Of a DNA stretch of 64,000 nt, positions 4,922-64,000 are shown piece after piece (positions within the stretch are counted from its first letter, which is position 1; the number at the start of each line of letters is the position of its first letter). The notes beneath the pieces are model-generated. The model saw only the letters and a list, made by a program, of their open reading frames with translations, had not been told where the DNA came from and made no database searches. Origin of the DNA: Spirochaetota bacterium (GTDB lineage: Bacteria > Spirochaetota > Brachyspiria > Brachyspirales > JACRPF01); NCBI GenBank assembly GCA_016214035.1, contig JACRPF010000020.1:68800-132799 (forward strand). Direction: 5' to 3'. The position numbers and the translations under genes are program-made.

Positions 4922-5686
4922 CTACGGTGCACGTTTCGCCACGTATGACATTTCCTTTTCCCAATTTACGTAGTGCGCATGGAATTCCTTCAGCGGTGCA
5001 TTCCCCGCCGTGCGTTCAACGAACGCTTTGAGTACCGGTAATTGCTGCCGGGCGATATTCTGCGCATCAGTATTCCTGGTAGCGGTGAGAAAGGACGAGA
5101 GGCTGGTGACCACGGTACCGCCTCCTTTTCCGGCTATCTGCTGCAGACTGCCGGTAAGCCATGGCGTATATTTCAGCATATAGTCGGCGTAACGACGGAG
5201 CAAAGGGACCTGCGCCATGAGTTCACCAAGCTCCCGGTCAAAATCATCACGGCAGACTATCGTTGTTCCGTTGAAGATGACCGGCGCCGACTCTGACATG
5301 TCACACATCCAGCCCGCACGCGGTGTCAGCACATCGCTTTGAAAACGTTCCTCGCGATACGGATAGAGCGGCATCGTTCTGCAGCGCAGCGGCTTATTCG
5401 TGTCATGCAGCGAGCAGCGGTTGTCCTCCCGGAGTGCGGGGCAGGTGAATATGGCCGGGATAAAAGCCGTCGGCGTTATCTGCACCGCAAGCGACGTTCC
5501 GCCGGGAACGGGGACGATTGCGCCGAGTGATGCCGTATGATTGTAATCTTTGCTGCCGGGCCGCAACGCGGTCCAGACAAACCCCAGTGGAAACAGATCT
5601 GCATGCGCGAATGCGTCGTTACAGGTGAGCGGCAGAAGGCCGTAGCAGCACCTGCCGCATTGCGTACAACGGAAATGCCGTACCAT
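4922..5686 (-). CDS. YkgJ-family cysteine-cluster (CxxCxxCC) protein
   Basis: MVRHFRCTQCGRCCYGLLPL motif. I moved the start from track position 5824 to ATG 5686, which sits 2 nt after the upstream stop and removes a 136-nt overlap. Confidence 0.7.
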   Translation of the reverse strand: MVRHFRCTQCGRCCYGLLPLTCNDAFAHADLFPLGFVWTALRPGSKDYNHTASLGAIVPVPGGTSLAVQITPTAFIPAIFTCPALREDNRCSLHDTNKPLRCRTMPLYPYREERFQSDVLTPRAGWMCDMSESAPVIFNGTTIVCRDDFDRELGELMAQVPLLRRYADYMLKYTPWLTGSLQQIAGKGGGTVVTSLSSFLTATRNTDAQNIARQQLPVLKAFVERTAGNAPLKEFHAHYVNWEKEMSYVAKRAP

Positions 5687-5688
5687 AC

Positions 5689-6177
5689 TCACGCGAGCGC
5701 TTTCGCTCCGCAGCAGTGTTTGAATTTCTTTCCCGAGCTGCAGGGACAGGGGTCGTTGCGGCCCGCCTTGGGTCCGGTACGCGGTACGCTCATCGGTTTC
5801 ATCTCGCTGTTCACGAAAAACCATTCACCGTTATCACGGCGGAAGCGGGACACGGCCGCGCTGGTGATATCCTGTCCGTCCTTACGGAAACGGACGACAT
5901 ATTCCACCTCGGCGGTATCGCCGGTTTCATCCGCGCGGCGTATCTGCAGGTCCTGCCATTCACAGCCGTCCGCCAGACGTTCCGCCTCGGCGCGGTTGAA
6001 GTCGTCGCGTATCTCCGGCGCATGCGTTCGGTCCACAAAATCGAGATTACGTACGGCGAAAGCGGTATACCGTGCACGGAACAATGCCTCCGCGGTGGAC
6101 GCACCTGCGGCACCGGCGATGATGGGACCGCAGCACTCGTCATATGCGCGGTTCGAACAGCATGTACATAAAACCAT
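5689..6177 (-). CDS. YchJ-family protein with SEC-C metal-binding motifs at both ends
   Basis: N-terminal CTCCSNRAYDECCGP and C-terminal GRNDPCPCSSGKKFKHCCG (SEC-C motif). Confidence 0.85.
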   Translation of the reverse strand: MVLCTCCSNRAYDECCGPIIAGAAGASTAEALFRARYTAFAVRNLDFVDRTHAPEIRDDFNRAEAERLADGCEWQDLQIRRADETGDTAEVEYVVRFRKDGQDITSAAVSRFRRDNGEWFFVNSEMKPMSVPRTGPKAGRNDPCPCSSGKKFKHCCGAKALA

Positions 6178-6247
6178 GGCGGCCTCTCATTTATTATGTT
6201 ACCTTAACTATACATCGCCGGAATGTATTGTCAATTACGTGCGGATA

Positions 6248-6276: not shown

Positions 6277-6304
6277 ATCATCATCAGAACATGGAGGGAA
6301 ACCC

Positions 6305-7294
6305 ATGAAACCGTTATGCATCATCACACTCATCATCTCGATGACCGCAGCAGCATTCGCCGGACTTGTGAACCCCGCGTTCAACGACAGGGACGGCGAC
6401 GGCCGGCCCGACGGCTGGGATTTCCGGCCCGAACCGAACGGCACGACGACGAAGATACTGCTCAAGGCAGTCGATGCGGGAACGCTGGTACGGTTCAAGG
6501 ATGAAGACACGAAACAGGGCCTGGGATTGGCGCAGACGATACCGGTTACCGGCGGGAAAACATACCGCGAGACGCTCAGAATAAAAAAAGGCGCGCTCAG
6601 CATATACTTTCTCTGGCTCGACTCCGAGAAAAAGCAGATCGGCAAGGAATGTTTCAAACCATGCACCGGCGGCGATGAGACATCAACGGTGGAATACATC
6701 GAGACGGCACCGGCAAACGCCGTGTACTGCACCATGTGGATATATTCGCCGATGGGGTCCACGACTGATGTTATCCTCACGGATGCGTCATTCGAGGAGG
6801 CTCCGGGGCAAAAGACGGCCGCACCGACAACCCCGGCTGCAGGCGTATCTGATAATGCACTATTCGGTTTCGAAACAGCCGGCTGGAGCGGTATCGAACT
6901 GACCGATAAAAATGTGAAAGAAGGAAAAACAGCGGGCCTTTGGAAAGATCACGACAAGAACAAGTCGATAAATCTTGATAAATTCAATCACGACTGGAGC
7001 GGATACACCGCTATGCGCTTCTGGCTGCATTCCGCTAAGCCGACCGGCGAGACGATGATCATCGTCCTCACGTCACGCAAGGACCCGAAAGTCTTTTCTT
7101 ATTACAGCCAGATGGTCGTCGTAAACTGGGAAGGCTGGAAAGAAATAATCCTCCCCTTCAGCAAGTTTCAGGTCAACCGCGAGCCGGTGGGCTGGAAATT
7201 CATCGAGTCTATTCAGATAACCGTTGACGGCTGGGGACTCAAACCGTATCCCGATTCCGTGCTCACGCTCGATGGATTAACGCTTCAGAAGTAA
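6305..7294 (+). CDS. Secreted protein with carbohydrate-binding-module-like domains
   Basis: The real start is ATG 6305, with GGAGGG 6 nt upstream. The rest of the 585-aa track ORF is antisense shadow. Signal peptide MKPLCIITLIISMTAAAFA. The N-terminal DGWDF region resembles the N-terminus of the next gene. The C-terminal half looks CBM11/CIA30-like (my recognition only). Confidence 0.7.
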   Translation: MKPLCIITLIISMTAAAFAGLVNPAFNDRDGDGRPDGWDFRPEPNGTTTKILLKAVDAGTLVRFKDEDTKQGLGLAQTIPVTGGKTYRETLRIKKGALSIYFLWLDSEKKQIGKECFKPCTGGDETSTVEYIETAPANAVYCTMWIYSPMGSTTDVILTDASFEEAPGQKTAAPTTPAAGVSDNALFGFETAGWSGIELTDKNVKEGKTAGLWKDHDKNKSINLDKFNHDWSGYTAMRFWLHSAKPTGETMIIVLTSRKDPKVFSYYSQMVVVNWEGWKEIILPFSKFQVNREPVGWKFIESIQITVDGWGLKPYPDSVLTLDGLTLQK

Positions 7295-45954: not shown

Positions 45955-46470
45955 CTATTCAACGGCACGGGCAACGGCGACTTTGTTCTTTTTGTTATTA
46001 TAGACAATACCGCCGTTCCAATATTCCACGGCGGCAAACAGCGAGTTTCCCCCGTCATTCGGACCGCTTTTTTCGGTCCGCCACGCAACGTATTCCATCA
46101 TCTTCTCAGGGTCACCGCTCTCGAACGCATCCATCCGGTTGCTGAGAAAGGTGTTCCACTTTTCAAGGTCCTGAAATCCATCGCCCTCGTCCTCGACGAT
46201 AAGACGGAACATCTTCTTGTCCGAATTGTACCACACGCGTACTTTTTTCGATTTATCGCATTTATTGCCGTGCAGTACTGCGTTCTTCACGATTTCGGAG
46301 ACCTGCTGTTCAAGCAGATTCTTCTCTTTCAAGTCCTCGATGGCGTTCTTGGTTATCAGCACGGTAAAAAAGCGTATCTGATTGATATCCGAGGCGAATT
46401 CTTTGTAAAACATGCCCTTCGTATCAAATAACTTGTTCTGCTCATCAACTAGTAGTTTTTTTTCAGCCAT
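45955..46470 (-). CDS. Small HATPase-like ATP-binding protein (anti-sigma regulatory kinase-like)
   Basis: EIVKNAVLHGN..RLIVEDEGDGF motif order. About 42% GC in a sampled line. Its TAG stop (45955-45957) directly abuts the tRNA 5' end. Confidence 0.6.
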   Translation of the reverse strand: MAEKKLLVDEQNKLFDTKGMFYKEFASDINQIRFFTVLITKNAIEDLKEKNLLEQQVSEIVKNAVLHGNKCDKSKKVRVWYNSDKKMFRLIVEDEGDGFQDLEKWNTFLSNRMDAFESGDPEKMMEYVAWRTEKSGPNDGGNSLFAAVEYWNGGIVYNNKKNKVAVARAVE

Positions 46471-46627: not shown

Positions 46628-47503
46628 CTACAGAACGATTGCCGCAGTTTTTTGCCGGTATGCACTTGGTGTCATACCGCGGAGCCGCCGGTAGGTCCGC
46701 GAGAAAAACAGCGGGTCGTCATATCCGGACTTGAATGCCGCTTCACGGAGCGTCATCCCCGGCTCCCGCATGAGCCGTTCAGCCTCGTCAAGACGCATAT
46801 CGATGAGGAGTTCCTTGAACGTCTTTCCCGCACAGGTGCGGAACAGCTGCGCCACGGTGGTCTTCCCGAGTCCGGCGACGGAGGCTACATCGGCAACGCT
46901 CAGACGCTCGCGGAAATGGGCGCGCATATACTCCATCACCAGTTCGTATTTTTCATCGGTGCGTATGCGTACCAGTTTATGGTCGATGATATGATGCACC
47001 AGTATCTCGAACAGATTGAGAATGCTGTTCACTTCAAGGCGGCTGTAGGTGCGTTTCTTTTTCAGAAGTCCGGCAAACTTCCCCATGACCGCTTTGCCCG
47101 ACAGCGCTATCTGGCCGAGCATGATATATGCGCAGAGCACATGGTGCGCGTACACGGGATGCACTGCCTCAAGCAGTCCGCCGTGGCAGATATGCGATAC
47201 GGTCTTTTTTTCGGCACGGGCCCGTTCAAAAAGCGTTCTATCGGATCTATCGCAGGCCGCCAGCCCCTGCGCCGTGCCCTTTACCGTCCGGCAATACGGT
47301 ATCTGCCGCTGAGCGCCGCCGGTGATGATGCGCTCTCCTTTTTCATTGAACACCGTGATGCGAAGGTCGAAGCATGCGGCGAATGCGTCAAGCGCTTTCG
47401 GTAGTTCCGATGAAAGCATGATGGTTGAGACCGGTGAATGCCGCATCATGTAATTATAGCCTATACGCGGACAAAAGTCCATACAACACGTATGATAATC
47501 CAT
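46628..47503 (-). CDS. AraC-family regulator with PocR-like sensory domain
   Basis: N-terminal Cys/His-containing PocR-like region (ACDRSDR..HICHGGLLEAV). C-terminal AraC HTH (VADVASVAGLGKTTVAQLFR..SGYDDPLFFSRTYRR). Confidence 0.8.
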   Translation of the reverse strand: MDYHTCCMDFCPRIGYNYMMRHSPVSTIMLSSELPKALDAFAACFDLRITVFNEKGERIITGGAQRQIPYCRTVKGTAQGLAACDRSDRTLFERARAEKKTVSHICHGGLLEAVHPVYAHHVLCAYIMLGQIALSGKAVMGKFAGLLKKKRTYSRLEVNSILNLFEILVHHIIDHKLVRIRTDEKYELVMEYMRAHFRERLSVADVASVAGLGKTTVAQLFRTCAGKTFKELLIDMRLDEAERLMREPGMTLREAAFKSGYDDPLFFSRTYRRLRGMTPSAYRQKTAAIVL

Positions 47504-50477: not shown

Positions 50478-50521
50478 ACCAAATAGTAAGGACTGATGGC
50501 GACCAATATCGCCATCAGTCC
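50478..50521 (-). terminator. Likely terminator of the che-like operon
   Basis: Perfect 13-bp stem GGACUGAUGGCGA / UCGCCAUCAGUCC (50490-50521) with a 6-nt loop, followed in sense by UUACUAUUUGG. Lies about 80 nt after the cheW stop. Confidence 0.5.
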
Positions 50522-50600
50522 CAAGCACGCATCAACACGTCATATTTTTTTTTGCAGACTCACCTTCTTTTGTTCGATTATTGCGTGCATTCCTCCAATT

Positions 50601-51122
50601 TTATACCGCCATTTCGCCCGCGGTTATGTCATTCACTGAAACTTCTTTCACATATTCAAGCTCTTTTTTCGAAAACACCTTGCTCGAGTCGAGAATAATA
50701 ATAAAATCATCCCCTTTTTTTCCAATGTTGTCGATGAACTCACCGCTTACATTCATCCCCACTTTCGGCGGCACCTCTATTTGCGATGAATCGAGGCGGA
50801 TCACCTCCTTGACCGCATCCACCAAGGCACCGATAATGATGATTTCGCCATCAAATTCCGTTTCAACGATAATGATAGCCGTATCAACAGTATGACTATT
50901 GCCGTTCATCTCGAATTTCAACCGCAAATCTATTACAGGAACCACACCACCGCGAAGATTTATCACTCCGGTCATGAACGACGGCGTCTTCGGCACCTTG
51001 GTGATGCGCGTCACTTCAAGCACCTCTTTCACCTTGAGAACCTCAAACGCGAACAACTCCCTATCGAGAATGAACGTAAGATATTGTTTCGATTCAAGCG
51101 TTGCCTTAGATTTTGTTTCCAT
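50601..51122 (-). CDS. cheW: Chemotaxis coupling protein CheW
   Basis: QYLTFILDRELFAFEVLKVKEV..VINLRGGVVPVIDLR. Confidence 0.9.
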   Translation of the reverse strand: METKSKATLESKQYLTFILDRELFAFEVLKVKEVLEVTRITKVPKTPSFMTGVINLRGGVVPVIDLRLKFEMNGNSHTVDTAIIIVETEFDGEIIIIGALVDAVKEVIRLDSSQIEVPPKVGMNVSGEFIDNIGKKGDDFIIILDSSKVFSKKELEYVKEVSVNDITAGEMAV

Positions 51123-51138
51123 AGTCCATCACTCCCGC

Positions 51139-52764
51139 TTAATACTTTTTAAATTCGCCATCCTCATTGTCGCCCGCGTTTGACATCTCATATTCAAATC
51201 CTTTTTTCTTGGCTTTTGCGGCAGTCTCAGCCGTTGCGGCCATGTGCTTGGCAGTTTCATCATGGCCATTGGGAGAATGTGCCGACACGGGATGCTTCTC
51301 GTGAGCACCGGTGCCTCCGTGCATATTCAGGTGAGACACATGTGCCGTGGGATGAACCGCTTTTTTTGACTTTGCCGTATAGGTATTCTGAACCGAGATG
51401 CTGCGATCTCCCGTTTTCAGAAAGTTGATCGCCTCCTGCATTTGGACGACCTGAGCAGACAATTCTTCGGCTGTTGCCGCAAGTTCTTCGGAACTGGATG
51501 CATTCTGCTGAACCACCGTGTTGAGCTGCTGCACCGCATTATTAATCTGCTGCGCGCCGTTATTCTGCTCGTTGCTTGCCGCGCTGATCTCGGCAACCAG
51601 CTCCGCGGTTTTCTGGATATCCGGCACGAGTTTACCGAGCATCTCTCCGGCTTTGGTGGCAACTTCAACGCTTGATTTCGACAACTCGCTGATTTCAGCC
51701 GCCGCATTCTGGCTTCGTTCGGCGAGTTTCTGAACTTCGCTCGCCACAACAGCGAATCCCTTGCCGTGTTCGCCCGCACGGGCAGCTTCGATAGACGCAT
51801 TCAACGACAATAGATTCGTCTGACGCGCGATCTCCTGAATGATCGACGTTTTATCCGCTATCTGCTTCATCGCATGAACGGTCTGTTTAACCGCTTCACC
51901 GCCCTCTTTGGCATCCGTTGCGCTCTTCGATGCTATTTTCTCCGTCTGACTCGCGTTATCGGCATTCTGACGTATGGTCGCGGTCATCTCCTCAATCGAC
52001 GAGGACACCTCTTCAACACTCGCGGCCTGTTCGCTTGCTCCCTGTGAAAGCTCCTCCGAAGATGATGATACCTGCTCCGTTCCTGCGCTTACGTTATTCG
52101 ACCCCGACTCAACGACATTGACAACTTTGAGAATCGATTGCACGAGAAAAAGTCCTATAACAATTGCAAGTATAACGCCGAAAATCAGCGTCACGACCAT
52201 TGTCGTCATCGACATATTCGCAAGTTTCGTATTCTCATCCGATGTCGCTTTTGCGAGCGCCGATTTCGTATCCGTCATCGCATCAAGCCATTTCTGCTCA
52301 TTAAATGCGGCGTCTTTCATCGGCCCATCAACGATCTTCCTGGCCTCCGCATCTTTACCCGCCTTTGCAAGCGTTATAAGCTCTTCGAGATACGTCCCGT
52401 AAACATCCCTGGATTTTTTGAACTCGGAAAACTCCTGCCGTCCCTTTTCCGTCAGCAGTGTTTTTTCATAGCTGTCTGAATTTTCTTTGATTTTGTCACG
52501 AAGTTTCGCGATGACATCCGCTATTTTCTGAATATCCGTTGCGTTCTCCGCATCAACCATATCTCTCACATTAATGCGAACACGTTGAAACGATACAGCG
52601 ATATCCATAAGTTGTCCGATTGGAACGGTTACTTTTTCATACAACCGCTTATCAGATTCTTCTATTGACTTTATTTGAGTCATGCCGAAAACACCTATGA
52701 CAGCAGCTACGGCTGCAACACCTAAAAAACCCATGATTAGTTTTGCGCGAATTCCTAACTTCAT
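51139..52764 (-). CDS. Methyl-accepting chemotaxis protein (4-helix-bundle sensor, HAMP, MA domain, His-rich tail)
   Basis: Start set at ATG 52764, preceded by AAGGAG 7 nt upstream. Signalling hairpin [37 protein letters not shown]. Confidence 0.9.
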
Positions 52765-52832
52765 TTCAACACTCCTTATGTTTTTTCCGAATATAGTCAA
52801 TCGCCTCAACGGCTACGAAAACGATTGTGATT

Positions 52833-54944
52833 TTATTGTTGTGCAACCTCCTCGCGCGCAGATTCATTCATCACTATTTCATTCTTAATTATCGTGTTCG
52901 CGTCAAGAATGAGCGCCACCGTGCCGTCGCCGAGAATAGTGGCGCCCGCGACCTCTTCGATACCGCGGAACGTGCTCCCGAGCGATTTGATCACCGTCTG
53001 ATGCTGCCCGAGCACGTCGTCCACCACAAGCCCCACGCGCCGGTCACCCAACTTCGTCACCACCATCCGTTCGATGACGGGTACGTTCCCGCTAATGTTG
53101 AAATTCTTTCTGAGCCGCACATAGGGGATTATCTCGCCGCGTATATTCACCACGTCGCTGCCGTGCCCGGTGTTCACGATGTCCTCTGTGAGATCGACAC
53201 ATTCGTCGACGTTTGAGAGATTGAGCACGAAGTAATCACCGCCGATGCGCGCGAGCAGTCCCTCAACGATGGCAAGTGTAAGCGGGATCTTCAATGTGAA
53301 CGTGGTCCCCTGTCCCGCCGCCGACTGTATCTCCACGGTCCCGCGAAGTTTTTCAACGTTATTTTTCACCACATCCATTCCCACACCGCGACCCGACACG
53401 CTTGTCGCCTTATCAACGGTTGAGAAACCGGGCAGGAATATCATCTGTTCTATTTCATGCGCCGGAAGCTCGGCATTTTCTTTCACGAGTCCGCGCTCTA
53501 TCGCCTTTTTCAGTATGCGCGAACGATTGAGTCCGCCGCCGTCGTCTGAAACGGTGATGAGCACATGCGCCCCCGCATGCGAGGCGGAAAGTGTAATTAT
53601 ACCCTTCGCGTTTTTCCCGTTCGCCTGTCGTTCTTCGGGGGATTCGATGCCGTGGTCGGCGGCGTTCCGTATGATGTGCAACAGCGGGTCTTTCAACGCC
53701 TCGATAATGTTTTTATCAAGTTCCGTCTCGGCGCCATGCGTCATGAGGTCGATGTCCTTGCCGAGGTCATTTGAAAGGTCGCGCACCAGACGGGAAAAAC
53801 CTTTGAACATCTCGTCAACGGGTATCATGCGAAGCGCCATCGACGTATCGCGAAGCTCGTCGGTGAGTCGCGTGAGCATCTCGGTGAGCATGCGTCCGTC
53901 GCCGAGACGTTTCGCCCCCGAAAGCTGATTGAACCGCGCGGTGAGTGTGACGAGTTCGCCCACCAGATTCACAAGCTTGTCGAGTTTTTCGCTTTTCACG
54001 CGTATGCTCGATTTCGCAACGTCGTCACGCCGCTTCGAGCGTTCGGAGCGCACCACGTTCTGTTCGGCCAGCGCCGCAGCCACCTGCGCCTCGCTCACAT
54101 AGCCTTTCTCCACCGCTATCTCGCCGATCATCTTCCGCGAGCGGATGATGTCGGCCAGGTCTTCCTCACTGATATCACCGCGCTCAACGAGTATATCGCC
54201 GATGCGTTTGTACTCCTCTGTTGCCGATACCGCGCTTCCCGTATCGATGACCTCGATTGAAACATCGCTTACGTCCTCGACAAATATGAAAACATCGCGT
54301 ATTGCATTTTTGTCTTTATCGGAGCATAGCGTGATGGCCCACGAGCTGTAACACAGCTCAGCATCAATCTCATCGAGCGGGGCCACGTGCTGCAAAGCTA
54401 TGATTACGCAATCGCCCATGCGTTTGATCTCGCTGAAGAGCGGCTCAATCTTCACCCCGCGAAGGAAGATATCCCTGTGCGGCTTGAAGATAATGCGATA
54501 CGTATTTCTGAATCTTGCCTCCGAATCTCGTTCACCGGTGACTTCCGATGTTTTTTTTGATTCCGGAAAAATAAGCCCTGTTGTTTCACGCATCCGGCAT
54601 TTCAGTGCAGCCGTTCCGCTGAGCGGGACCGACTGTTCATCGCCGAGTATTGCTTTGAGATGATCGGCTGCGGCAAGCGTAAGATCTATTATCTCTTTTG
54701 TCACGGCAATACTGCCTTTCCGGATATAATCGAAAAGCGTCTCGAACTCATGCGCGAATTCTGATGCGCGGCTGAAACCGAACATGGCACCCGACCCTTT
54801 AATCGTATGCATGCCGCGAAAAATGGTATTGATAATCTCCGTATCGGACGGAGTCCGTTCGAGCTCGATGAGCGACTGCTCGATACGCTCGATGACTTCA
54901 AACGCCTCGTCGCGAAAGGCCTCGCTGAACCTGCTTACATCCAT
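52833..54944 (-). CDS. cheA: Chemotaxis histidine kinase CheA
   Basis: Hpt FRGMHTIKGSGAMFGF, HATPase LLHIIRNAADHGIE..DDGGGL..GRGVGMDVV and a C-terminal CheW-like domain. Start set at ATG 54944 (MDVSRFSEAF). Confidence 0.9.
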   Translation of the reverse strand: MDVSRFSEAFRDEAFEVIERIEQSLIELERTPSDTEIINTIFRGMHTIKGSGAMFGFSRASEFAHEFETLFDYIRKGSIAVTKEIIDLTLAAADHLKAILGDEQSVPLSGTAALKCRMRETTGLIFPESKKTSEVTGERDSEARFRNTYRIIFKPHRDIFLRGVKIEPLFSEIKRMGDCVIIALQHVAPLDEIDAELCYSSWAITLCSDKDKNAIRDVFIFVEDVSDVSIEVIDTGSAVSATEEYKRIGDILVERGDISEEDLADIIRSRKMIGEIAVEKGYVSEAQVAAALAEQNVVRSERSKRRDDVAKSSIRVKSEKLDKLVNLVGELVTLTARFNQLSGAKRLGDGRMLTEMLTRLTDELRDTSMALRMIPVDEMFKGFSRLVRDLSNDLGKDIDLMTHGAETELDKNIIEALKDPLLHIIRNAADHGIESPEERQANGKNAKGIITLSASHAGAHVLITVSDDGGGLNRSRILKKAIERGLVKENAELPAHEIEQMIFLPGFSTVDKATSVSGRGVGMDVVKNNVEKLRGTVEIQSAAGQGTTFTLKIPLTLAIVEGLLARIGGDYFVLNLSNVDECVDLTEDIVNTGHGSDVVNIRGEIIPYVRLRKNFNISGNVPVIERMVVTKLGDRRVGLVVDDVLGQHQTVIKSLGSTFRGIEEVAGATILGDGTVALILDANTIIKNEIVMNESAREEVAQQ

Positions 54945-54976: not shown

Positions 54977-55330
54977 TTACACACTGAATATATCGTGCAT
55001 GATGCAGTTGCACCCGCCGTTGACACTGCAGCGCCTATGGGCGAAAAAACCCGAGTGTTTTGCGGCATCGACCACCGCGGGTGATGCACGATTACTGCAG
55101 AACGAGATGTTGCGCTTTCGTTTCAAAAGAAGCATATGCGCTGCGCTTATTATCTGCATGAAGGAAATATCCGCCACGTCAATATCGTTCAGATCAAGAA
55201 CGATATCCCGATCTTCGTTCATCGCCGATATAAGTCTCTGTTGTATTTCCTTCGCATGATCGATGGTTGCATCGCCCTTTATGCGGGCGATGAGCACGTC
55301 GTCCTGCCGTTCTGTTTCAATGGCAAACAC
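54977..55330 (-). CDS. STAS-domain protein with a Cys-rich C-terminal tail
   Basis: GTG start preceded by AAGGAGG. STAS-like DIVLDLNDIDVADISFMQIISAAH. Tail is FCSNR..RRCSVNGGCNCIMH. Confidence 0.7.
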   Translation of the reverse strand: MFAIETERQDDVLIARIKGDATIDHAKEIQQRLISAMNEDRDIVLDLNDIDVADISFMQIISAAHMLLLKRKRNISFCSNRASPAVVDAAKHSGFFAHRRCSVNGGCNCIMHDIFSV

Positions 55331-55517
55331 ATACTCCTCCTTTTTTACTAGTTATTCTCAAATCGTACATTTACACTAATTACTGTCGCTCTCGCGGTGC
55401 ATCCTGCACCGCTTGCGCTAGCGTAGCGCGGGTGCTCACAACACTGTGCGCATCCATGCGCGGGTCCATTCGTGAATACTAATGTTCTTTTCTTATTCGT
55501 CATATAATAGTCCCGCG

Positions 55518-55883
55518 CTATCCTACAACTTTCTTCACCGTCTCTTTCAGCTTATCCGGAGTGAATGGTTTCACTATCCATGCTGTGGCGCCTGCGGCCT
55601 TGCCCTCGTCCTGTTTTCCCTGCTCCGACTCCGTGGTCAGTACGATGATGGGCAGAAACTTGCTTCTATCGTCCTTGCGGATATTCTTGATAAGCTCGAT
55701 TCCGTTCATCCCCGGCATGTTTATGTCGGTTATGACAAGTTTCATCGATGAACCCGAAAGCTTCGTAAGCGCCGACGTACCCGAATCAGCTTCAACAACT
55801 TCATACCCGTCCTCTGCCAGGGTGAAATGCACCATCTGCCGCATCGACGGAGAATCATCCACGATCAGTACCTGTACACCCAA
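55518..55883 (-). CDS. cheY: CheY-like single-domain response regulator
   Basis: VLIVDDSPSMR..VITDINMPGMNG..PIIVLTTE..KPF. Confidence 0.9.
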   Translation of the reverse strand: MGVQVLIVDDSPSMRQMVHFTLAEDGYEVVEADSGTSALTKLSGSSMKLVITDINMPGMNGIELIKNIRKDDRSKFLPIIVLTTESEQGKQDEGKAAGATAWIVKPFTPDKLKETVKKVVG

Positions 55884-55887
55884 AGTG

Positions 55888-57162
55888 CTACCCTCCTATT
55901 GATGCTGCGTCACGCGCAGCGATTGTTTTTTGCAGAATATCTTTTTCTTCTTTCATCGTGTAGAATCCCGAAAGATAGTGTACAACATCTCCTGACGTAC
56001 CGTCCCCGTCTCCGCCCATGGCATCAGCGATGACCTTCAGTTCGGCGCCGAAATCGTTGAGGGGACTTATGACGTGTTCAACGCGCTGACGGATGATATC
56101 GTGCGCCTGCATGGATACCACGATGGCGTTCGTATCCACGGCCAGTGCCTCGGTGTCCTTCTTCAGTGTTTCAAGCTCGTGCTTCACGTCCTCAATGGTA
56201 TTGTTGATTGTCGCCAGCGTCGAGTCGAACGCCATTTCCGCGTTGGCGGTATGCTTGTTGATTGCGACCGCACCCTCTTCAATCTCGGAGTGCATGCTTC
56301 GCGCGGCGCTCATCACTTCTTCAAGAATGACGCTAATCTCCTTTGCGGCGTTCTCGCTCAGGCGCGAGAGTTTCCTCACCTCATGCGCCACCACCGCAAA
56401 ACCCCTGCCGCTTTCACCGGCCCGCGCGGCTTCGATGGCCGCGTTGATGGCAAGCACATTCGTCCGGTCCGCTATGCCACCGATGCTGTTGATGATCTCG
56501 CCGATGCTCTTCGCCTGCTCGATGATGCGTCCGATGCCGTCGAGGTTTTTCTTCGTTATACCCGTGGTGGCCCGGAAATTCTCCATAAGACCGCGCATGA
56601 CGTCCTTGGTGACGTCGAGTACGGTACCGCCCGCGGTAAGTCCGTTACCCGAAAGCGTGCCGAAAACGGCCGCCGTTTTTTCCGACTGGTGCCGTGCCTT
56701 GGCGTTGATATCGAGAAAACTTTTTGAAAGATCAACGGCCGTTGTCTCAATCTGTTCGCGGACAGCGGTGAGCTGATTTACGAGCACACCGATGCCTTTG
56801 GTGCGGTCGTTGAGCATGCCCGCCACCGGACTTATAATAGCCGCTAATTCTTCCAGTTTACAATCGCGCTGCTTTATTTCATTGCGCAGTACTCCGATCA
56901 CGGCTTCAGTTTCCCGGGCATGTACCGCAACGGCACGTGCCACCCGTGCATCTGCGGCAGCCGTAAGCTTTTTCCGTTCATCCTCAAATGCCGCATACTG
57001 CGCTTCAAGCTGTGCGCGTTTTCCTGCAACATCCAGAATCGGGATGAGCGTCATCACCACGGCCGCGAGCGTAAGAAAAAGCCGCAGCGGCAACAACGGA
57101 ATGAATGCCGAGAACAAGGCAAGCATCACTATAATCGCGTATCGAACATACCATTGCCTCAT
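55888..57162 (-). CDS. MCP-signalling-domain protein with two N-terminal TM helices
   Basis: [37 protein letters not shown]. No recognisable periplasmic sensor. Confidence 0.85.
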
Positions 57163-57170
57163 CTGCTTAC

Positions 57171-57356
57171 CTATTCTTTATCCGTATTCTGATCAGCGTC
57201 ATTATTTATTTCCGGATTTTCTAAAACGCGCGGGTTATACTTGATGAGCGTTATGAAACAGGCGCTGCACATAAATCGGTGTGTATCGGTATATTGTTCA
57301 ACATTATACAGCCGCATGGTTAGTTTTTTGCAACAGTCACAACGTTTTATTTCCAT
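57171..57356 (-). CDS. Small zinc-ribbon-like protein (C-x2-C-x20-C-x2-C), paralog B
   Basis: 61 aa: [29 protein letters not shown]. Paralogous to the adjacent ORF. GGTAGG lies 8 nt upstream of the ATG. Confidence 0.5.
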
Positions 57357-57595
57357 ATTTCATGCCTACCATAATGCAACTTGATTTCATTCCCATATTC
57401 TGCAGTGCCGTTTTTCTTTTTTGTTCCCTCCCGCTTAGCCTGAACAAGATCACTTACGATCTGAAGTACACAACTGCCGCACACCAAATGAAAGGCATCG
57501 CTATATTCACCCATGTCAAATAGATTCGATACCCGTTTCTTGCAGCGTTCACACACATCATCTCCCACTGTATCTCCATGCACCGATAACGACAC
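57347..57595 (-). CDS. Small zinc-ribbon-like protein (C-x2-C-x20-C-x2-C), paralog A
   Basis: VCERCKKRVSNLFDMGEYSDAFHLVCGSC. There is no ATG before the first Cys, so the start is one of several GTGs (57595 or downstream). It overlaps paralog B by 10 nt. Confidence 0.5.
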   Translation of the reverse strand: MSLSVHGDTVGDDVCERCKKRVSNLFDMGEYSDAFHLVCGSCVLQIVSDLVQAKREGTKKKNGTAEYGNEIKLHYGRHEIWK

Positions 57596-57663
57596 ATCGT
57601 ATCACAAACGATATCATGTGATCGGTATAAAGATTTTATGGCATTATTCCCATACACTGTTCA

Positions 57664-57680
57664 ATACAATATCTGTGCCA
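57664..57680 (-). promoter_or_regulatory. Sigma54-type promoter TGGCAC-N5-TTGTA
   Basis: Sense TGGCACagataTTGTAtt. The -24 box is perfect. The -12 box has T instead of the conserved C. It lies 70-85 nt upstream of the first zinc-ribbon ORF and about 100 nt downstream of the sigma54 activator gene. Confidence 0.45.
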
Positions 57681-57783
57681 CACGCCAAACGGCTGCATTG
57701 ACAAAAAAACGATGTTGCGGCAATCATACGTGTAAAAAAATGGCCGCTATTCGAACGGGAATGTAACAAAACGTACATGGCGG

Positions 57784-59148
57784 CTATTCAAGATTATATT
57801 TTTTCAACTTACGGTTCAGCGTGGGACGCGACATTTGCAGCAATTCCGCCGCCTGCGATTTGTTGCCGGATGTTTTTTTGAGTGCCGCTGCGATTGTACG
57901 CCGCTCGATAATGTCAAGATTGAATATATTCTGCTCAGATGCGGCTGTATCCATGGCCTTTTTATCATGCACAAACGGAAGATGCTGCGGGAGAAGCATG
58001 TTTCCCGAACAAAGGATCACCGCCCGTTCTATGATGTTTTTCAGTTCACGCACATTACCGGGAAAATGATACGAAGACAGCAACGCATGGAATTCGGGAG
58101 ATGCACTGTCCACTTTTTTACACTCTTTTTGAGTATAATGCCGTATATAGTGATTGATAAGCTCAGGGATGTCTTCTTTCCGCTCTCTGAGCGGCGGCAG
58201 AGCAATCTCGATTGTATTGAGTCTGTACAAAAGATCGGACCGGAACGTATTGTCAATGAGAGCGCTGATATTCTTATTGGTCGCCGAAATAACACGCACA
58301 TCAATCTGTATGTCTTTTGATGAACCGATGCGGTGTATGATGCGATCCTCGAGTACGCGAAGCATTTTAGACTGCGCTTGGAACGGCATATCGCCGATTT
58401 CATCGAGAAAAATGGTACCGCTGTCCGCGCGTTCGAAATAACCGGCTTTATCCTCGTGCGCGTTTGTAAATGCCCCTCTCGAATGGCCGAAAAGTTCGCT
58501 TTCCACGAGCGATTCGGGGATAGCCGCGCAGTTTACCGGCAGGAATGTCCTGTCCTTTCGCGCCCCCGCATAGTGTATCAGCCGCGCAAACAGCTCCTTG
58601 CCGGTACCGCTTTCACCGGTAATCATCACCGACGCGTTTGGAGATGCAGCGGCTTGCAGCGCAAGATCAATAGCCTCACGCATGAGTATGCTGTTTCCTG
58701 AAATATCTCCGATTTTCTTGCGAACTTCTTCCGTAAATAATGCATGGCGGTATTCCGCCGCTTTAAGTTCACGCATAAGATCGATGTAGTGTTTCGTGCG
58801 CTCAATCGATGCTTGTATCAAAAAACCATCAAGCGGTTTGGTGATATAATCAAACGCGCCGTAGCGAAGCGTTTGAATTACCGTCTCGCTTGCGTTCCGC
58901 GCGGTTATCATAATCGCTTCAATATCGGGATGATCCGTCTTCATCAATTTCAGGAATTCAATTCCGCTCATCTCCGGGAGATTGATATCAATGAGCGCGA
59001 TATCGATTGCATGCGCCGCAATGATTGCAAACGCCTTTGTAGGGCATTCCGCCGCAAAAATGTCGTATGGAAAACTTGATAAAAAATCATTCAGGCTGTT
59101 ACGCACGATAAGATCGTCATCGATGATAAGTAGCTGCAGCCGCTTCAT
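57784..59148 (-). CDS. Sigma54-dependent response regulator (NtrC family enhancer-binding protein)
   Basis: REC, AAA+ domain (GESGTGKE, ESELFGHSRGAFTNA) and a C-terminal Fis-type HTH (NKSQAAELLQMSRPTLNRKLKKY). Confidence 0.95.
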   Translation of the reverse strand: MKRLQLLIIDDDLIVRNSLNDFLSSFPYDIFAAECPTKAFAIIAAHAIDIALIDINLPEMSGIEFLKLMKTDHPDIEAIMITARNASETVIQTLRYGAFDYITKPLDGFLIQASIERTKHYIDLMRELKAAEYRHALFTEEVRKKIGDISGNSILMREAIDLALQAAASPNASVMITGESGTGKELFARLIHYAGARKDRTFLPVNCAAIPESLVESELFGHSRGAFTNAHEDKAGYFERADSGTIFLDEIGDMPFQAQSKMLRVLEDRIIHRIGSSKDIQIDVRVISATNKNISALIDNTFRSDLLYRLNTIEIALPPLRERKEDIPELINHYIRHYTQKECKKVDSASPEFHALLSSYHFPGNVRELKNIIERAVILCSGNMLLPQHLPFVHDKKAMDTAASEQNIFNLDIIERRTIAAALKKTSGNKSQAAELLQMSRPTLNRKLKKYNLE

Positions 59149-59161
59149 AAAAACGTCATTA

Positions 59162-61948
59162 CTATTTTTGCAGAGTAAGGTGAATTACAAATTCGCTATA
59201 TGCGCCGTATTCACTTTCGACATAAATCTCGCCCCCCATCGATGAAACAATTCCGTAGACAATTGACAGTCCAAGCCCCGTCCCCTCCTTCGTGGGCTTT
59301 GTGCTGAAATACGGGTCGAATATTTTCTTGCGGAAATCGTCCGGAATACCCATGCCGTTGTCGCGAACTTTCACCAACACCTTGCCGTCATCCGTAATGT
59401 GACTCAGTATACGGATAGTTTTTCTATACTCCGCGGAGGCCGTACGCGCTTTTTCCTCGACCGCATAACGGGCATTCGACAGCAGATTAAGCACCACCTG
59501 CTCGAATCGAAATAGATTACCGAGCACCATGCACGGCAGGTCTGAATAGGATGCCGCGAGGTCAATATTGTGATTGCGGTATTGCACCTCAACAAGATCG
59601 AGCGCATAACTGATGCTCTCGTTCAAATCGAACGGTGCCACCGTATCGTTGCTCTGCTCACGCGAGAATGTACGGATATGGTCGACAAGATTGTTTATCC
59701 GCTTCACGTATTCTTTAACCTTTGCGGCACGGTCATCAACAACCGGGTTGTCAATTTTCCCGCGGCTTAACAACTGGAGCGAATCCGCCATAAGATGTAT
59801 ACCGGAAAGCGGTTGTGCTATTTCGTGCGCAATACCGGCAGCCAGCTGCCCCAGCGATGACAGTTTTTCAGCCTCGACGACTTTCTCACGTAATATGCGG
59901 TCATGTTCCTCTGCGTCTTTCCGCTCGGTCACGTCGGCCATGTTCAGAAATATCGACTCCTTGCCTTCATAGATAATCGGCCGCGCAAACGCATCCACCC
60001 ATTTTATCCGGCGGTCTTTCGTCACGATGCGATAGGTTACGTTAATGGTCTTCCGTATCCCCGCGCGGACCTGTCCCGCAAGTTCCTTGATATCCGGCAG
60101 ATCATCGGGATGCGTGATCATGGCATGGTCCAGCAGCGGCCAGCCCAGCATCTCGGCAATCGTATATCCGAAAATATCGGCCATCGCCTGATTCTCATAA
60201 AGAATATGCCCTTGATGGATTATCATGATACCCATTATCGATTGTTCGGACAGCACCCTGAATTTCTGCTCACTTTCACTGAGCGCCTGATTGAGCATCT
60301 TCAGCTTTGCGGTGCGGGCGGTAATCTTTCGCTCAAGACTGCAGTTCAATCGTTTTATCTGTTCATCTGCCTGAACACGTTCGGTTATTTCCCGGGCATA
60401 TACGACGATATAATATACCTCGTCGTCATCATCGAAAACGGGATACAGATGATTCTCATACCATGAACGTCCCTGTTGATCGATAAACACCAGGGGTTCA
60501 TGCTTGTCTATCACCTGTTGCATATATCCCTTCAACTGCGTCACATTGCCGATCGGCAGCTCATCAATAGATACCCCGATCAGTTCGTGCGCTTCTTTCG
60601 CGAATCTTTTTGCCGTCGCTTCATTGCATACGTGAATCACCCCCGTCGTATTCAGCAGAATGATAATCTCGACCGAAGCATTGAAAATCGCCTGCAGCGC
60701 TTTTTCATTATTTCGCAATTCAAGTTCCGCCTTTTTCTGCGGGGTGATATCGCGTATAATCGAACCGATTTGAAACCCCGTCTCGGTTTTTATCGGAAAC
60801 ATTGACTGCTGAATATAGTGCACCTCTTCGGCTTGTTGTATCCGTGATTCAATTACCTTATTGAAAAACACGGCATCCCCCGATGCCAACGCATGACGTA
60901 TTTTATCCCGGAGCTCCACGAGTTGTTCCGGGTTACGGGATTGCTCCGGTATCATCTGATAATGAATCTCCCATACCGGTTTTCCTATGGCCTTATCCTT
61001 CGCTATGCCGCTGATCCGTTCCAACGCATTATTCCAATCAATAATGATCCCCGATTCATCAATAAGGCTCACACCATCGGAATTCTGCTGCGTTAAGGCG
61101 CGGTATTTTTGCTCACTATACCGCAGCAATGACTCCGATTTTTTCTGATTGCTGATGTTCCTTACCGAACTTACTATTCCGAAAAGGGTATTATCGACGA
61201 ACACCGGCCTCGCCGTTTGAGATATCCATCGACATTCCCCCGCGGCGTCATACATCCTGTATTCGCAATCGACAATAGCTTCCCCGCAAAAAGCCTTTCG
61301 ATTCGCGTCTTTCACTCTTTGAAGATCGTCCTGATGTATATAATTCCAGACTGAATTCCGCTGAATTGTTTCCGCAGAATGTCCAAGAACGTTCATGCAC
61401 TGATCGCTCATGAATGCAATCGAGCCATCTGGATTCTGCATCACAATCAAATCCGGCGAATTCTTTACCAAAATACTGAAATATTGATCACATTCCTTGA
61501 GCGATCTTTCCATAGCCAGCAGGGCTTCGTACTTACGCGTACGGCCGCCATTCGTCCGCACCGGCTGTCGGAAATACCCGTCAGCGCATGGTTCCAACCG
61601 GCCGTTACCTAGCTGTTGTACATACGTACGCAATGAAGCTTTCGTAACTACGCCAACAAATCGATTCTGTTCCGCTACCGGCAGGACTGATGTATTATAT
61701 TTTTCAATGAGTGGAAGAATGGTGTCGATATGATCGAGCCCGGATACACACGGCACTGATGCTATGCAGTCACCCACCAGGCGATGTGCAGATGACACCA
61801 CGCTCTCCGGGGTAATAATACCGTGAAAAACGCCGTCGTCCATTACAACAAGAAACGTCTTATCGATGAGAAGTTCTTCGATTTGATTTACGCATACATA
61901 TGGCGAAACGACATTATAATCGTCACATACCAGCGTTGTGAGGTTCAT
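59162..61948 (-). CDS. CBS-pair / multi-PAS sensor histidine kinase
   Basis: N-terminal CBS-like pair (VMDDGVFHGIIT..VLPVAEQNRFVGVVT), about 4 PAS repeats, H-box AGIAHEIAQPLSG and HATPase RDNGMGIP..GTGLGLSIV. Confidence 0.9.
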   Translation of the reverse strand: MNLTTLVCDDYNVVSPYVCVNQIEELLIDKTFLVVMDDGVFHGIITPESVVSSAHRLVGDCIASVPCVSGLDHIDTILPLIEKYNTSVLPVAEQNRFVGVVTKASLRTYVQQLGNGRLEPCADGYFRQPVRTNGGRTRKYEALLAMERSLKECDQYFSILVKNSPDLIVMQNPDGSIAFMSDQCMNVLGHSAETIQRNSVWNYIHQDDLQRVKDANRKAFCGEAIVDCEYRMYDAAGECRWISQTARPVFVDNTLFGIVSSVRNISNQKKSESLLRYSEQKYRALTQQNSDGVSLIDESGIIIDWNNALERISGIAKDKAIGKPVWEIHYQMIPEQSRNPEQLVELRDKIRHALASGDAVFFNKVIESRIQQAEEVHYIQQSMFPIKTETGFQIGSIIRDITPQKKAELELRNNEKALQAIFNASVEIIILLNTTGVIHVCNEATAKRFAKEAHELIGVSIDELPIGNVTQLKGYMQQVIDKHEPLVFIDQQGRSWYENHLYPVFDDDDEVYYIVVYAREITERVQADEQIKRLNCSLERKITARTAKLKMLNQALSESEQKFRVLSEQSIMGIMIIHQGHILYENQAMADIFGYTIAEMLGWPLLDHAMITHPDDLPDIKELAGQVRAGIRKTINVTYRIVTKDRRIKWVDAFARPIIYEGKESIFLNMADVTERKDAEEHDRILREKVVEAEKLSSLGQLAAGIAHEIAQPLSGIHLMADSLQLLSRGKIDNPVVDDRAAKVKEYVKRINNLVDHIRTFSREQSNDTVAPFDLNESISYALDLVEVQYRNHNIDLAASYSDLPCMVLGNLFRFEQVVLNLLSNARYAVEEKARTASAEYRKTIRILSHITDDGKVLVKVRDNGMGIPDDFRKKIFDPYFSTKPTKEGTGLGLSIVYGIVSSMGGEIYVESEYGAYSEFVIHLTLQK

Positions 61949-62800: not shown

Positions 62801-64000
62801 TCAAGGCTGCACCATAATCTTCATCACGACCATCCCAGAACCAGTCGCGATATGACACAGATACACCCCGGGGCCGACCCTTTTTCCATTCGTCGTCGAC
62901 AACGCCCAGACAATCCTGCCGTCTTCCGCGGAAAGCACAGCGATGCGTTTACCAGATACGGTATACAGCGTTGCGGTCGTTGCCTCCGGAATAGTGTCGA
63001 TAATAACAGTGCCTCCCGTCCTGCAGGGATTGTTCCGTATGATCGTACTCCGAAGGTTCGTGACGGGTTCAGTTATACTGATATTCGTCAGCATGACACT
63101 CGCTGAATTGGTCGTCACACGCGCTATGATGCGTACATCATAGCGCACAGACTGATCGGGCATTTCCCGATAGCGCCACTCGTTTGTAAAACGCCCGCTT
63201 GTCAGCAGCGTAAGCGATCCCGCGATGTCAGCGGGCGGCATTACGTTCCATGCGCCGCTGTTTGCGACTGCATACTCCAACGTTATGCTCGCCGCATTCG
63301 TACAGTTCTTTATCAAATCGTATGAGATTATGGCCGAGCGCGGCGCATTTCGCGCCTCAACAGCGGCATTGACCAAGCTGAGAAAAACGTTCGGCTGTTT
63401 TGAGGAGGCGGTACACAAGGGCGATTCTCCACCGCTATTGGTCGCGGACACTTTATACCAATAGAGTATGTTTGCGTCAAGCGAAATATCCGTATATGCG
63501 GTGACATTAGCCCCGACATCCGCAAGATAGGCATATGAAACGCCATTTATGCTGCGATAAATTCTAAACGCACTCTCGGTAGAGGAATTATCCGCCCAGG
63601 AGAGACGCAGCGCCATGGCGCCCAAATCGGTAAGTGACAGCCCTGAAGGGGCGGCGGGCGGCGGCGGGGTGAAGCCGATGTTCGTAACCGTGATCCAGAG
63701 AACGTTCGTCCGGGAGTTTCCGCTGCTCTCCGTGGCGATGACAAGAATCTTATACGTACCGCCAGCGAGCGATGACGGAAGCGAGTATGTATACCCATAT
63801 AGATTGCCTCCGGCATTGGTCATCGCGCATGTACCACCGGAGACCGCGGCAAGGTCTAGGGTCATGCCGGTGACCATTGTGCCGAACCCGAGTGCATTCG
63901 CGTTGAACGATACTGAACACCCGTTCGTGCCGATGCCGGGTGTCATGACCGCATTCGTGAGGATAATACGCGCGGGATTGGAATGCGCAAAAAGCCATTC
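62801..64000 (-). CDS. Secreted Fn3-domain protein with a T9SS-type C-terminal sorting domain (5' end beyond the right edge)
   Basis: The frame stays open from 63946 to 64000 (..EWLFAHSNPARIILTNAVMTPG..), so the CDS is partial. Fn3 PSGLSLTDLGAMALRLSWADNS..YRIYRS..YWYKVSATN. Tail NPCRTGGTVIIDT..ATLYTVSGKRIAVL..GPGVYLCHIATGSGMVVMKIMV resembles Por_Secre_tail / FlgD-Ig. Confidence 0.65.
   Translation of the reverse strand, partial: EWLFAHSNPARIILTNAVMTPGIGTNGCSVSFNANALGFGTMVTGMTLDLAAVSGGTCAMTNAGGNLYGYTYSLPSSLAGGTYKILVIATESSGNSRTNVLWITVTNIGFTPPPPAAPSGLSLTDLGAMALRLSWADNSSTESAFRIYRSINGVSYAYLADVGANVTAYTDISLDANILYWYKVSATNSGGESPLCTASSKQPNVFLSLVNAAVEARNAPRSAIISYDLIKNCTNAASITLEYAVANSGAWNVMPPADIAGSLTLLTSGRFTNEWRYREMPDQSVRYDVRIIARVTTNSASVMLTNISITEPVTNLRSTIIRNNPCRTGGTVIIDTIPEATTATLYTVSGKRIAVLSAEDGRIVWALSTTNGKRVGPGVYLCHIATGSGMVVMKIMVQP

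Follow-up and report, generated by a model that had tools for sequence, protein, structure and literature searches.

Comparative evidence for a family of tandem Cys4 mini-genes ahead of an MCP-like gene in Spirochaetota

Introduction

Chemosensory pathways are among the best-catalogued signalling systems of bacteria, although little is known of their accessory parts beyond model organisms. In the sensory rhodopsin-Htr systems, a sensor-less transducer of two helices works with an input protein that is separately encoded and co-transcribed. A small Cys4 module is found in another setting, the N-terminal zinc-binding domain of ClpX, a treble-clef Cys4 unit for dimerisation and adaptor binding. 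Here we describe two adjacent genes for Cys4 mini-proteins, hereafter ZR1 and ZR2, which stand at the head of a chemosensory-like operon in a metagenome-assembled genome (MAG) of a Spirochaetota bacterium (GCA_016214035.1, contig JACRPF010000020.1, positions 68,800 to 132,799). The whole 64,000-nucleotide (nt) stretch is called the window, and positions are counted from its first letter. Comparison with related loci indicates that both are genuine genes and that they belong to a protein family which, as far as we could find in the literature, has not been described before.

Among described systems, haloarchaeal zinc-finger micro-proteins with one domain offer the first comparison. Brz of Halobacterium is encoded directly upstream of bop and regulates bop (PMC2253796), and deletion of HVO_0758 or HVO_2753 lowers the transcripts of motility and chemotaxis genes (PMC10716476). 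These three proteins resemble the ZR proteins in having fewer than 80 residues, a single Cys4 site made of two CxxC-type motifs, and charged or disordered termini (PMC10716476, PMC6562870, PMC2253796), and also in their genetic link to motility and chemotaxis or to the gene immediately downstream, while the Pfam scores that connect the two groups, at best 17 bits, do not reach the gathering cut-offs of 27-30. Unlike them, the ZR proteins are bacterial, do not carry the C(P)XCG signature, and are encoded in tandem arrays translationally coupled to a gene resembling those of methyl-accepting chemotaxis proteins (MCPs). The haloarchaeal proteins act at the transcript level as far as known, which also differs from the role that we favour for ZR.

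The second comparison is the cheA1 cluster of Borrelia burgdorferi, with the order cheW2-bb0566(STAS)-cheA1-cheB2-bb0569(atypical MCP)-cheY2, which has been implicated in regulation and not in in vitro chemotaxis (PMC10703414, PMC6719511). The window, judged by its Pfam domain content, is like it in that a STAS gene adjoins cheA and that an atypical MCP and a CheY are present. Unlike in the window, no Cys4 mini-protein genes are reported there (PMC10703414, PMC6719511). The window cluster is without CheB, and it has a predicted sigma54 promoter, whereas the Borrelia cluster is under RpoS/BosR. The likeness to the sensory rhodopsin-Htr pairs is conceptual only: an MCP-type transducer without a sensor is encoded beside a would-be input partner, but the partners here would be soluble Cys4 mini-proteins instead of membrane photoreceptors, and their pairing with the transducer is putative.

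Results

An earlier note, made from the letters of the window alone, had pointed to two small open reading frames (ORFs) that overlap by 10 nt and share the architecture C-x2-C-x20-C-x2-C. Both were recovered on the minus strand as described, with the same spacing in each:

57347-57595, minus strand: maximal ORF1, 82 residues from GTG 57595
57347..57568, minus strand: ZR1, Cys4 mini-protein in its likeliest form, 73 residues from GTG 57568 (MGDDVCERC...), ZR1-type (L-F, C-G-S-C)
57171..57356, minus strand: ORF2, Cys4 mini-protein ZR2, 61 residues from an ATG, ZR2-type (T13, L-Y, C-S-x-C-F), with an acidic tail

The overlap spans 57347-57356, and 8 nt separate the ZR2 stop from the start of the MCP-like gene. 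When the six-frame translation of the window was scanned with a regular expression, CxxC-x20-CxxC occurred in these two ORFs and nowhere else, where second-order Markov shuffles of the window give a chance expectation of 0.07 occurrences. The two proteins are paralogous, as had been proposed: BLASTP aligned them across a 33-residue core with E=2e-7, and the DNA identity of the cores is 0.60 at codon position 2 and 0.45 and 0.43 at the other positions, an excess at position 2 typical of coding sequences that have diverged. A codon-usage model trained on the window's long ORFs gives the pair log-odds of +0.08 to +0.11 per codon (ZR1, +0.11), and every alternative ORF in the region scores below zero. 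The sizes given in the earlier note, at most 82 and 61 residues, are right for the maximal ORFs, but ORF1 most likely starts at GTG 57568 and not at 57595, because family members start 2-5 residues (usually 5) before the first cysteine, and this would make a protein of 73 residues. A GGAG lies 5 nt upstream of GTG 57568. Rfam gave no match in 56900-58000, hence no known leader or riboswitch there.

Relatives were collected with a HMMER profile built from the two paralogues and searched against 1.84 billion protein cluster representatives. Eleven proteins were found at E<1e-3 (1e-11 to 9e-4), all 51-82 residues long; the databases name the relatives "hypothetical protein", from Spirochaetes or Spirochaetota MAGs. 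Across the 13-15 aligned members the four cysteines and their spacing are invariant, and Y22 and V29 are nearly so. The family pattern, which both window ORFs fit, runs from the start to a first CxxC, through 19-20 residues with [LF]-[YF] and Y, to V/M-CxxC-[FLV]-[LI]-x-[IL], which opens a helix. A Shine-Dalgarno motif stands ahead of every copy. In the following, homologous loci are numbered with L and family proteins with P. ZR2 itself is a called gene in a Logan assembly (P0001) and is 49% identical to P0002, the ZR2 of L021. A word-based search gave no match at all for ORF1, since it is uncalled everywhere, and for ORF2 only the protein itself. Scanning metagenomes with a degenerate DNA pattern returned 34 loci, among which only L018, L019 and L021 hold true members; the others were rejected as Cys-rich or low-complexity chance matches. 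A scan of genome contigs with the MCP-like protein returned only unrelated MCPs (Marinimicrobium, Azospirillum).

Homologues with conserved cysteines clearly occur in related che clusters. A search for ZR genes next to MCP and CheY genes in relatives, suggested in the earlier note, found them in L005/L008, L021, L048 and L050, and in all, ZR lies directly before orthologous MCP-like genes in L005/L006/L007/L018, L008-L012, L021, L048 and L050. CheY, STAS and CheA genes come after the MCP-like gene wherever the contig reaches that far. The first two sets represent two Spirochaetota lineages that are related to each other and were found in groundwater and other metagenomes. In these, members of 69 and 52 residues overlap by 20 nt; a gene for a 120-residue response regulator stands upstream, and downstream come a 421-residue MCPsignal protein, whose ATG shares bases with the stop of the second member, then a response regulator, STAS, CheA and a HAMP-MCP. 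L021 has members of 55 and 51 residues with an 11-nt overlap, then a shortened MCP-like gene, CheY, CheW, STAS and CheA. In L048 (GCA_016214275.1), 422 nt without called genes (6288-6709) separate the sigma54 activator from the MCP-like gene; a perfect sigma54 motif lies there, together with one unannotated ZR member, whose start would lie 10 residues ahead of CxxC if ATG 6501 is used. L050, another contig of the same sample, which carries the GenBank protein HZC28_04455, has in order a PAS kinase, a sigma54 activator, TGGCACGCATCTTGCA, and three tandem members of 64, 63 and 60 residues (5585-6202) with 8-nt overlaps, the last overlapping the MCP-like homologue.

The MCP-like gene is therefore preceded by one ZR copy (L048), two (window, L005/L008, L021) or three (L050). 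The tandem arrangement emphasised in the earlier note is real in the window and in the other two-copy loci but is not obligatory for the family, which has one to three copies and also singletons away from any MCP gene. The stop of the last copy overlaps the MCP-like ATG (ATGA) in L005, L008, L048 and L050, and in L021 the gap is 2-3 nt; coupling by an overlap or a gap of a few nt thus recurs in at least five distinct clusters. We also considered whether the single copy of L048 is a recent hybrid of ZR1 and ZR2, and rejected this, as matches to both are interspersed and not split into halves.

Some of these loci have peculiarities of their own. The MCP-like protein of L021 (3064-3882, 272 residues) is without the signalling hairpin tip, has no MCPsignal match in Pfam and aligns to both ends of the window protein; the missing part was either lost naturally or dropped by the assembly. 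The L048 contig is binned as Candidatus Omnitrophica, but its CheY shares more than 90% identity with the CheY of the Spirochaetes MAG from the same sample, which suggests that the contig is mis-binned. In L050 only the middle ZR gene was called, as the 5'-extended 87-residue P0017; the GenBank version is the 63-residue P0010.

The comparison of L005 with L008, in which synonymous sites are saturated (dS 1.1-1.5), gave ratios of nonsynonymous to synonymous substitution rates (dN/dS) of 0.047 (ZR1) and 0.049 (ZR2 outside the overlap). The neighbouring genes are both above these values (MCP-like gene, 0.13; STAS, 0.24), and the other five frames of the same DNA gave 0.28-9 (antisense frames, 0.28-4.2). 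Judged from these ratios, purifying selection on the two genes is strong and specific to the proposed frames. Between close orthologues the ZR cores are more conserved than the MCP-like protein, while across lineages the divergence is similar (core identity 38-41%, MCP-like protein 44%). A distance tree of the 34-residue cores separated two groups. The ZR1-type (L-F, C-G/A-S-C) is mostly basic, with an isoelectric point (pI) of about 9, and comprises all first-position copies together with P0006 and P0008; the window ZR1 clusters with the ZR1 proteins of L005/L008/L021. The ZR2-type (T13, L-Y, C-S-x-C-F) is mostly acidic and comprises all copies next to the MCP-like gene in two-copy loci together with P0003, P0004, P0007 and P0009. 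This division indicates that the duplication is old and that both copies have been retained, and on these sequence comparisons the ZR proteins are a previously undescribed family with two old subfamilies.

One may ask whether the ORFs are chance frames in a long 5' leader, or whether an antisense ORF is the real gene. The state of the annotation would suit such a reading. Only one accession, presumably that of the MCP-like protein, lies between the CheY MBI4979239.1 and the activator MBI4979241.1, and this numbering suggests that the GenBank MAG has no annotation for either mini-gene. In a Logan assembly the gene caller took a 53-residue antisense ORF in place of ZR1 (L001, 9834-9995). The first word-based search with ORF1 was empty, and the region has a low GC content and a modest codon score. 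The comparative data, however, effectively refute this reading: the motif occurs in the window only at ORF1 and ORF2, family members with invariant cysteines exist, their synteny is conserved, the proposed frame has a dN/dS of about 0.05 and the antisense frames 0.28-4.2, and the codon score of the antisense ORF is negative. We conclude from homology, synteny and frame-specific selection that ZR1 and ZR2 are genuine genes, as the earlier note had argued, and that they show how small genes escape annotation, being apparently absent from GenBank and displaced elsewhere by an antisense ORF. The same MAG holds the further members P0003, P0008 and P0010 and, three accessions from P0008, a second CheY (>90% identical), so that several parallel clusters seem to exist in one genome.

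The operon and its surroundings contain the following features:

59162..61948, minus strand: histidine kinase rich in CBS and PAS domains (Pfam), presumed partner of the activator
57784..59148, minus strand: sigma54-dependent response regulator (REC-AAA+-HTH_8 by Pfam; MBI4979241.1), presumed activator of the promoter
57665..57680, minus strand: predicted sigma54-type promoter TGGCACAGATATTGTA, -24 GG present, -12 GT instead of GC
55888..57162, minus strand: MCP-like transducer, 424 residues, MCPsignal domain (Pfam PF00015, E=5e-30)
55518..55883, minus strand: CheY-like single-domain response regulator (Pfam PF00072, E=4e-29; MBI4979239.1)
54977..55330, minus strand: STAS-domain protein (Pfam STAS, E=2.5e-8)
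52833..54944, minus strand: CheA histidine kinase, by ORF and sequence inspection; homologous loci have Hpt/H-kinase_dim/HATPase_c/CheW there
51139..52809, minus strand: second MCP, with a 4HB_MCP sensor domain (Pfam)
50601..51122, minus strand: CheW (Pfam PF01584, E=5e-32)
50489..50522, minus strand: strong terminator-like hairpin with a 15-bp stem, probable operon end

The mini-genes indeed stand directly ahead of an MCP-like gene and cheY, as had been noticed. The ORF of CheA reaches GTG 55013, but its likely start is the ATG that gives MDVSRFSEAF. The gap between CheY and STAS (55331-55517) is 187 nt in the window versus 23-85 nt in homologous loci and could accommodate an internal promoter or some other small element.

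The sigma54-type promoter claimed in the earlier note is a plausible candidate. With a consensus of -24 GG and -12 GC 10 nt apart (TGGCAC-N5-TTGCW), the window motif TGGCAC-N5-TTGTA at 57680-57665 is the sole match to TGGYAY-N5-TTGYW in the window; 0.29 such matches are expected by chance, so this lone motif is not significant by itself. Full-consensus motifs (TGGYAY-N5-TTGCA) were found 36-59 nt before the first operon gene in L005, L008, L019, L021, L048 and L050, and they support the promoter call in the window despite its imperfect -12 element.

Single members also occur outside MCP operons. L019 has the order sigma54 activator, promoter, ZR, PAS-GGDEF-EAL, HATPase_c_2, SiaC-like, methyltransferase-like and SpoIIE; L004 has ZR, three proteins without a firm Pfam match (one with faint TPR matches), HAMP-SpoIIE, a protein without a Pfam match and STAS; L047 has a response regulator, ZR and an unrelated AIRS-family (SelD-like) gene. 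The tail of the L019 member P0006 (708-956) contains a third CxxC (CRDC), and this member stands ahead of a SiaABC-like module with a PAS-GGDEF-EAL protein, a context that links the family to c-di-GMP signalling too.

These positions raise the possibility that the ZR proteins are small zinc-finger regulators that bind to DNA, RNA, RNA polymerase or the sigma54 activator and so control their own operon by feedback. ZR is always the first or nearly the first gene behind a sigma54 promoter, in four contexts (window, L048, L050, L019) it directly follows the gene of the sigma54 activator, and in L005/L008 and L047 a receiver-domain gene is immediately upstream; singletons in non-MCP signalling operons would suit a general regulatory role, and the ZR1-type proteins are basic. 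Precedents are Brz, with its control of bop (PMC2253796), and the HVO_0758 and HVO_2753 deletions (PMC10716476). On the other hand, Pfam detected no DNA-binding family, the ZR2-type proteins are acidic, and adjacency to the activator is more simply explained as cis-regulation of the whole operon; the tight translational coupling to the MCP-like gene and the variable copy number better suit stoichiometric subunits. We regard a regulatory role as possible but on the doubtful side.

The gene to which ZR is coupled encodes a protein in which Pfam recognised MCPsignal only and no ligand-binding domain. By inspection, its N-terminus contains a hydrophobic segment that is apparently membrane-spanning. 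Its identity is 74% with the protein of L048, 63% with that of L050 and 44% with those of L005/L008. In its C-terminal part, a motif opening with MQ(A/Q/Y) is strictly conserved in the window, L005, L008, L021 and L048; the D-x3-Q spacing of this motif resembles that of the active-site motif of CheZ, and no CheZ match was seen in Pfam for the MCP-like proteins with it.

The recurrence of STAS genes would fit another reading, in which the mini-proteins are parts of a partner switch that bind, or are sequestered by, a phosphoprotein of the STAS or SiaC type, its kinase or its phosphatase, within a path from a Che-like kinase to a STAS output. Cys4 mini-proteins are not known among the components of partner switches. 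In each context of sufficient length, a STAS or SiaC-like gene is present: STAS is next to CheA in the window, L005/L008, L021 and L048, L004 has HAMP-SpoIIE and STAS, and L019 has HATPase_c_2, a SiaC-like protein and SpoIIE. STAS beside cheA1 is also a known spirochaetal theme, as in bb0566-cheA1 of Borrelia (PMC10703414, PMC6719511). The ZR genes, however, never adjoin the STAS gene itself, L047 has no STAS within its 1.9-kb contig, and such genes are common in these genomes, so their co-occurrence may be incidental. We therefore consider a partner-switching role unlikely.

Predicted structures were obtained with AlphaFold2 fed with the family alignment. The predicted local distance difference test (pLDDT) score is above 90 over residues 1-40 of ZR2; for ZR1 it is 81-87 over residues 1-40 and above 80 over residues 1-46. 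Both models have short hairpins around the first CxxC, place the second CxxC (C30, C33) at the N-terminus of a helix (31-46), and leave the tails disordered. The predicted fold is thus a treble-clef-like Cys4 knuckle followed by a helix. This departs from the earlier note, which had called the proteins zinc ribbons: in a classic zinc ribbon both CxxC motifs sit on beta-hairpin knuckles, and the models argue against that. Foldseek found no significant match in PDB or BFVD (best E, 0.4 and 0.05), and the weak neighbours, all non-significant, were RING, ZZ, TFIIB and a ClpX model. The nearest folds, RING and ZZ, are not ribbons; like the ClpX N-domain they are treble clefs that bind proteins.

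Searches by sequence were likewise without a significant match in Pfam, NCBIfam, PHROGs and PDB. The window ORFs reach 17.2 and 15.9 bits against DUF7685 and DUF7573, below the gathering thresholds of 27 and 30.2 bits; sub-threshold matches were seen in 7 of 13 members for DUF7685 and in 6 of 13 for DUF7573 (best E, 9e-4 and 8e-4). In agreement with the earlier note, which could not assign the proteins to any standard chemotaxis component, Pfam and NCBIfam gave no match to CheZ, CheC/CheX/FliY, CheD, CheV, CheW, CheR or CheB even at E<=1. The architecture of the ClpX N-domain is similar, with CxxC(G)K, a hydrophobic stretch and a CxxC opening a helix within about 40 residues. It differs in its ligand spacing (18 versus 20) and in being fused to an AAA+ module, whereas ZR is free-standing. 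Homology to it was rejected: hhalign against an E. coli ClpX N-terminus entered by hand gave a probability of 0.5% (E=0.11) with the cysteines aligned, and Pfam had no match of ZR to zf-C4_ClpX. A likeness to phage Mu Com was also set aside (no Pfam support; spacing 16 versus 20).

The same site could in principle bind iron as a rubredoxin-like redox centre, and the ZR proteins would then be redox or oxygen sensors or electron carriers. The four invariant cysteines lie in two CxxC knuckles with conserved aromatics around them, some N-termini (MKTYHCDRCGK in L005) resemble the starts of rubredoxins, and metagenomes of groundwater and sediment type are the source of the host lineage. Yet no match to the rubredoxin family (PF00301) appeared in Pfam even at E<=1, the ligand spacing is 20 versus about 29 in rubredoxins, and in the models the second CxxC starts a long helix and does not form a CPxCG knuckle. 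A rubredoxin-like centre is therefore highly improbable in our view.

Discussion

Our preferred reading, which we hold tentatively, is that the ZR mini-proteins are accessory or input subunits of the sensor-less MCP-like transducer. ZR1 and ZR2 would be co-transcribed and translationally coupled at the head of a chemosensory-like operon that depends on sigma54 and includes STAS, and which the adjacent PAS kinase and sigma54 activator presumably switch on. Each protein is predicted to consist of a Cys4 metal-binding domain of about 35 residues and a disordered charged tail. Made in step with the transducer, the mini-proteins would bind to it as small subunits, a single copy as a homodimer and two or three copies as hetero-oligomers, possibly a basic/acidic heterodimer. 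The Cys4 site may be a structural element or one sensitive to thiol or metal redox state. The ZR proteins are strongly conserved between orthologues but differ widely from one paralogous cluster to another in the same genome, which suggests that they help to keep parallel pathways specific.

Several observations weigh against this picture. The codon scores of the two genes are only weakly positive (0.08-0.11, where typical genes have a mean of 0.32 and a standard deviation of 0.18) and the GC content of their region is below that of the flanking genes, so that the window sequence alone leaves some doubt on their status. The -12 element of the window promoter is non-canonical, and a handful of assemblies of uncultured Spirochaetota are the only ones in which the family has been seen. 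In addition, single members head operons without an MCP in L019, L004 and L047, and the function of ZR therefore cannot be MCP-specific.

A bolder version, which we think rather unlikely, is that the Cys4 mini-proteins are detachable, soluble metal- or redox-sensing input modules of a chemoreceptor, which dock on the sensor-less transducer, either alone or with two or three paralogues in a hetero-oligomer, and set the CheA/STAS response. If it is true, copy number and the rapid divergence of paralogues would give each parallel cluster its own specificity. What the data present is a conserved gene family, coupled to a receptor-like gene in which no sensor was detected and overlooked by standard annotation. 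Should the ZR proteins supply the input or control the assembly of the receptor, they would add a type of component to chemosensory arrays and offer a handle on the "second" STAS-CheA clusters of spirochaetes, of which the Borrelia counterpart affects virulence.

Two observations concern genes farther from the pair. About 9 kb downstream of the cluster, the window encodes an RsbW-like HATPase_c_2 protein and a PocR-AraC regulator (45955-46470 and 46628-47503), and the former is a candidate for the partner that the STAS protein lacks. Large repetitive surface-type proteins are encoded both in the window (62801-63946, with a weak fn3 match) and in L004 (17-1840). Their C-terminal segments are short, beta-rich and alike (...KIMVQP and ...KLTVIR), and may serve this lineage as a domain for secretion or sorting.

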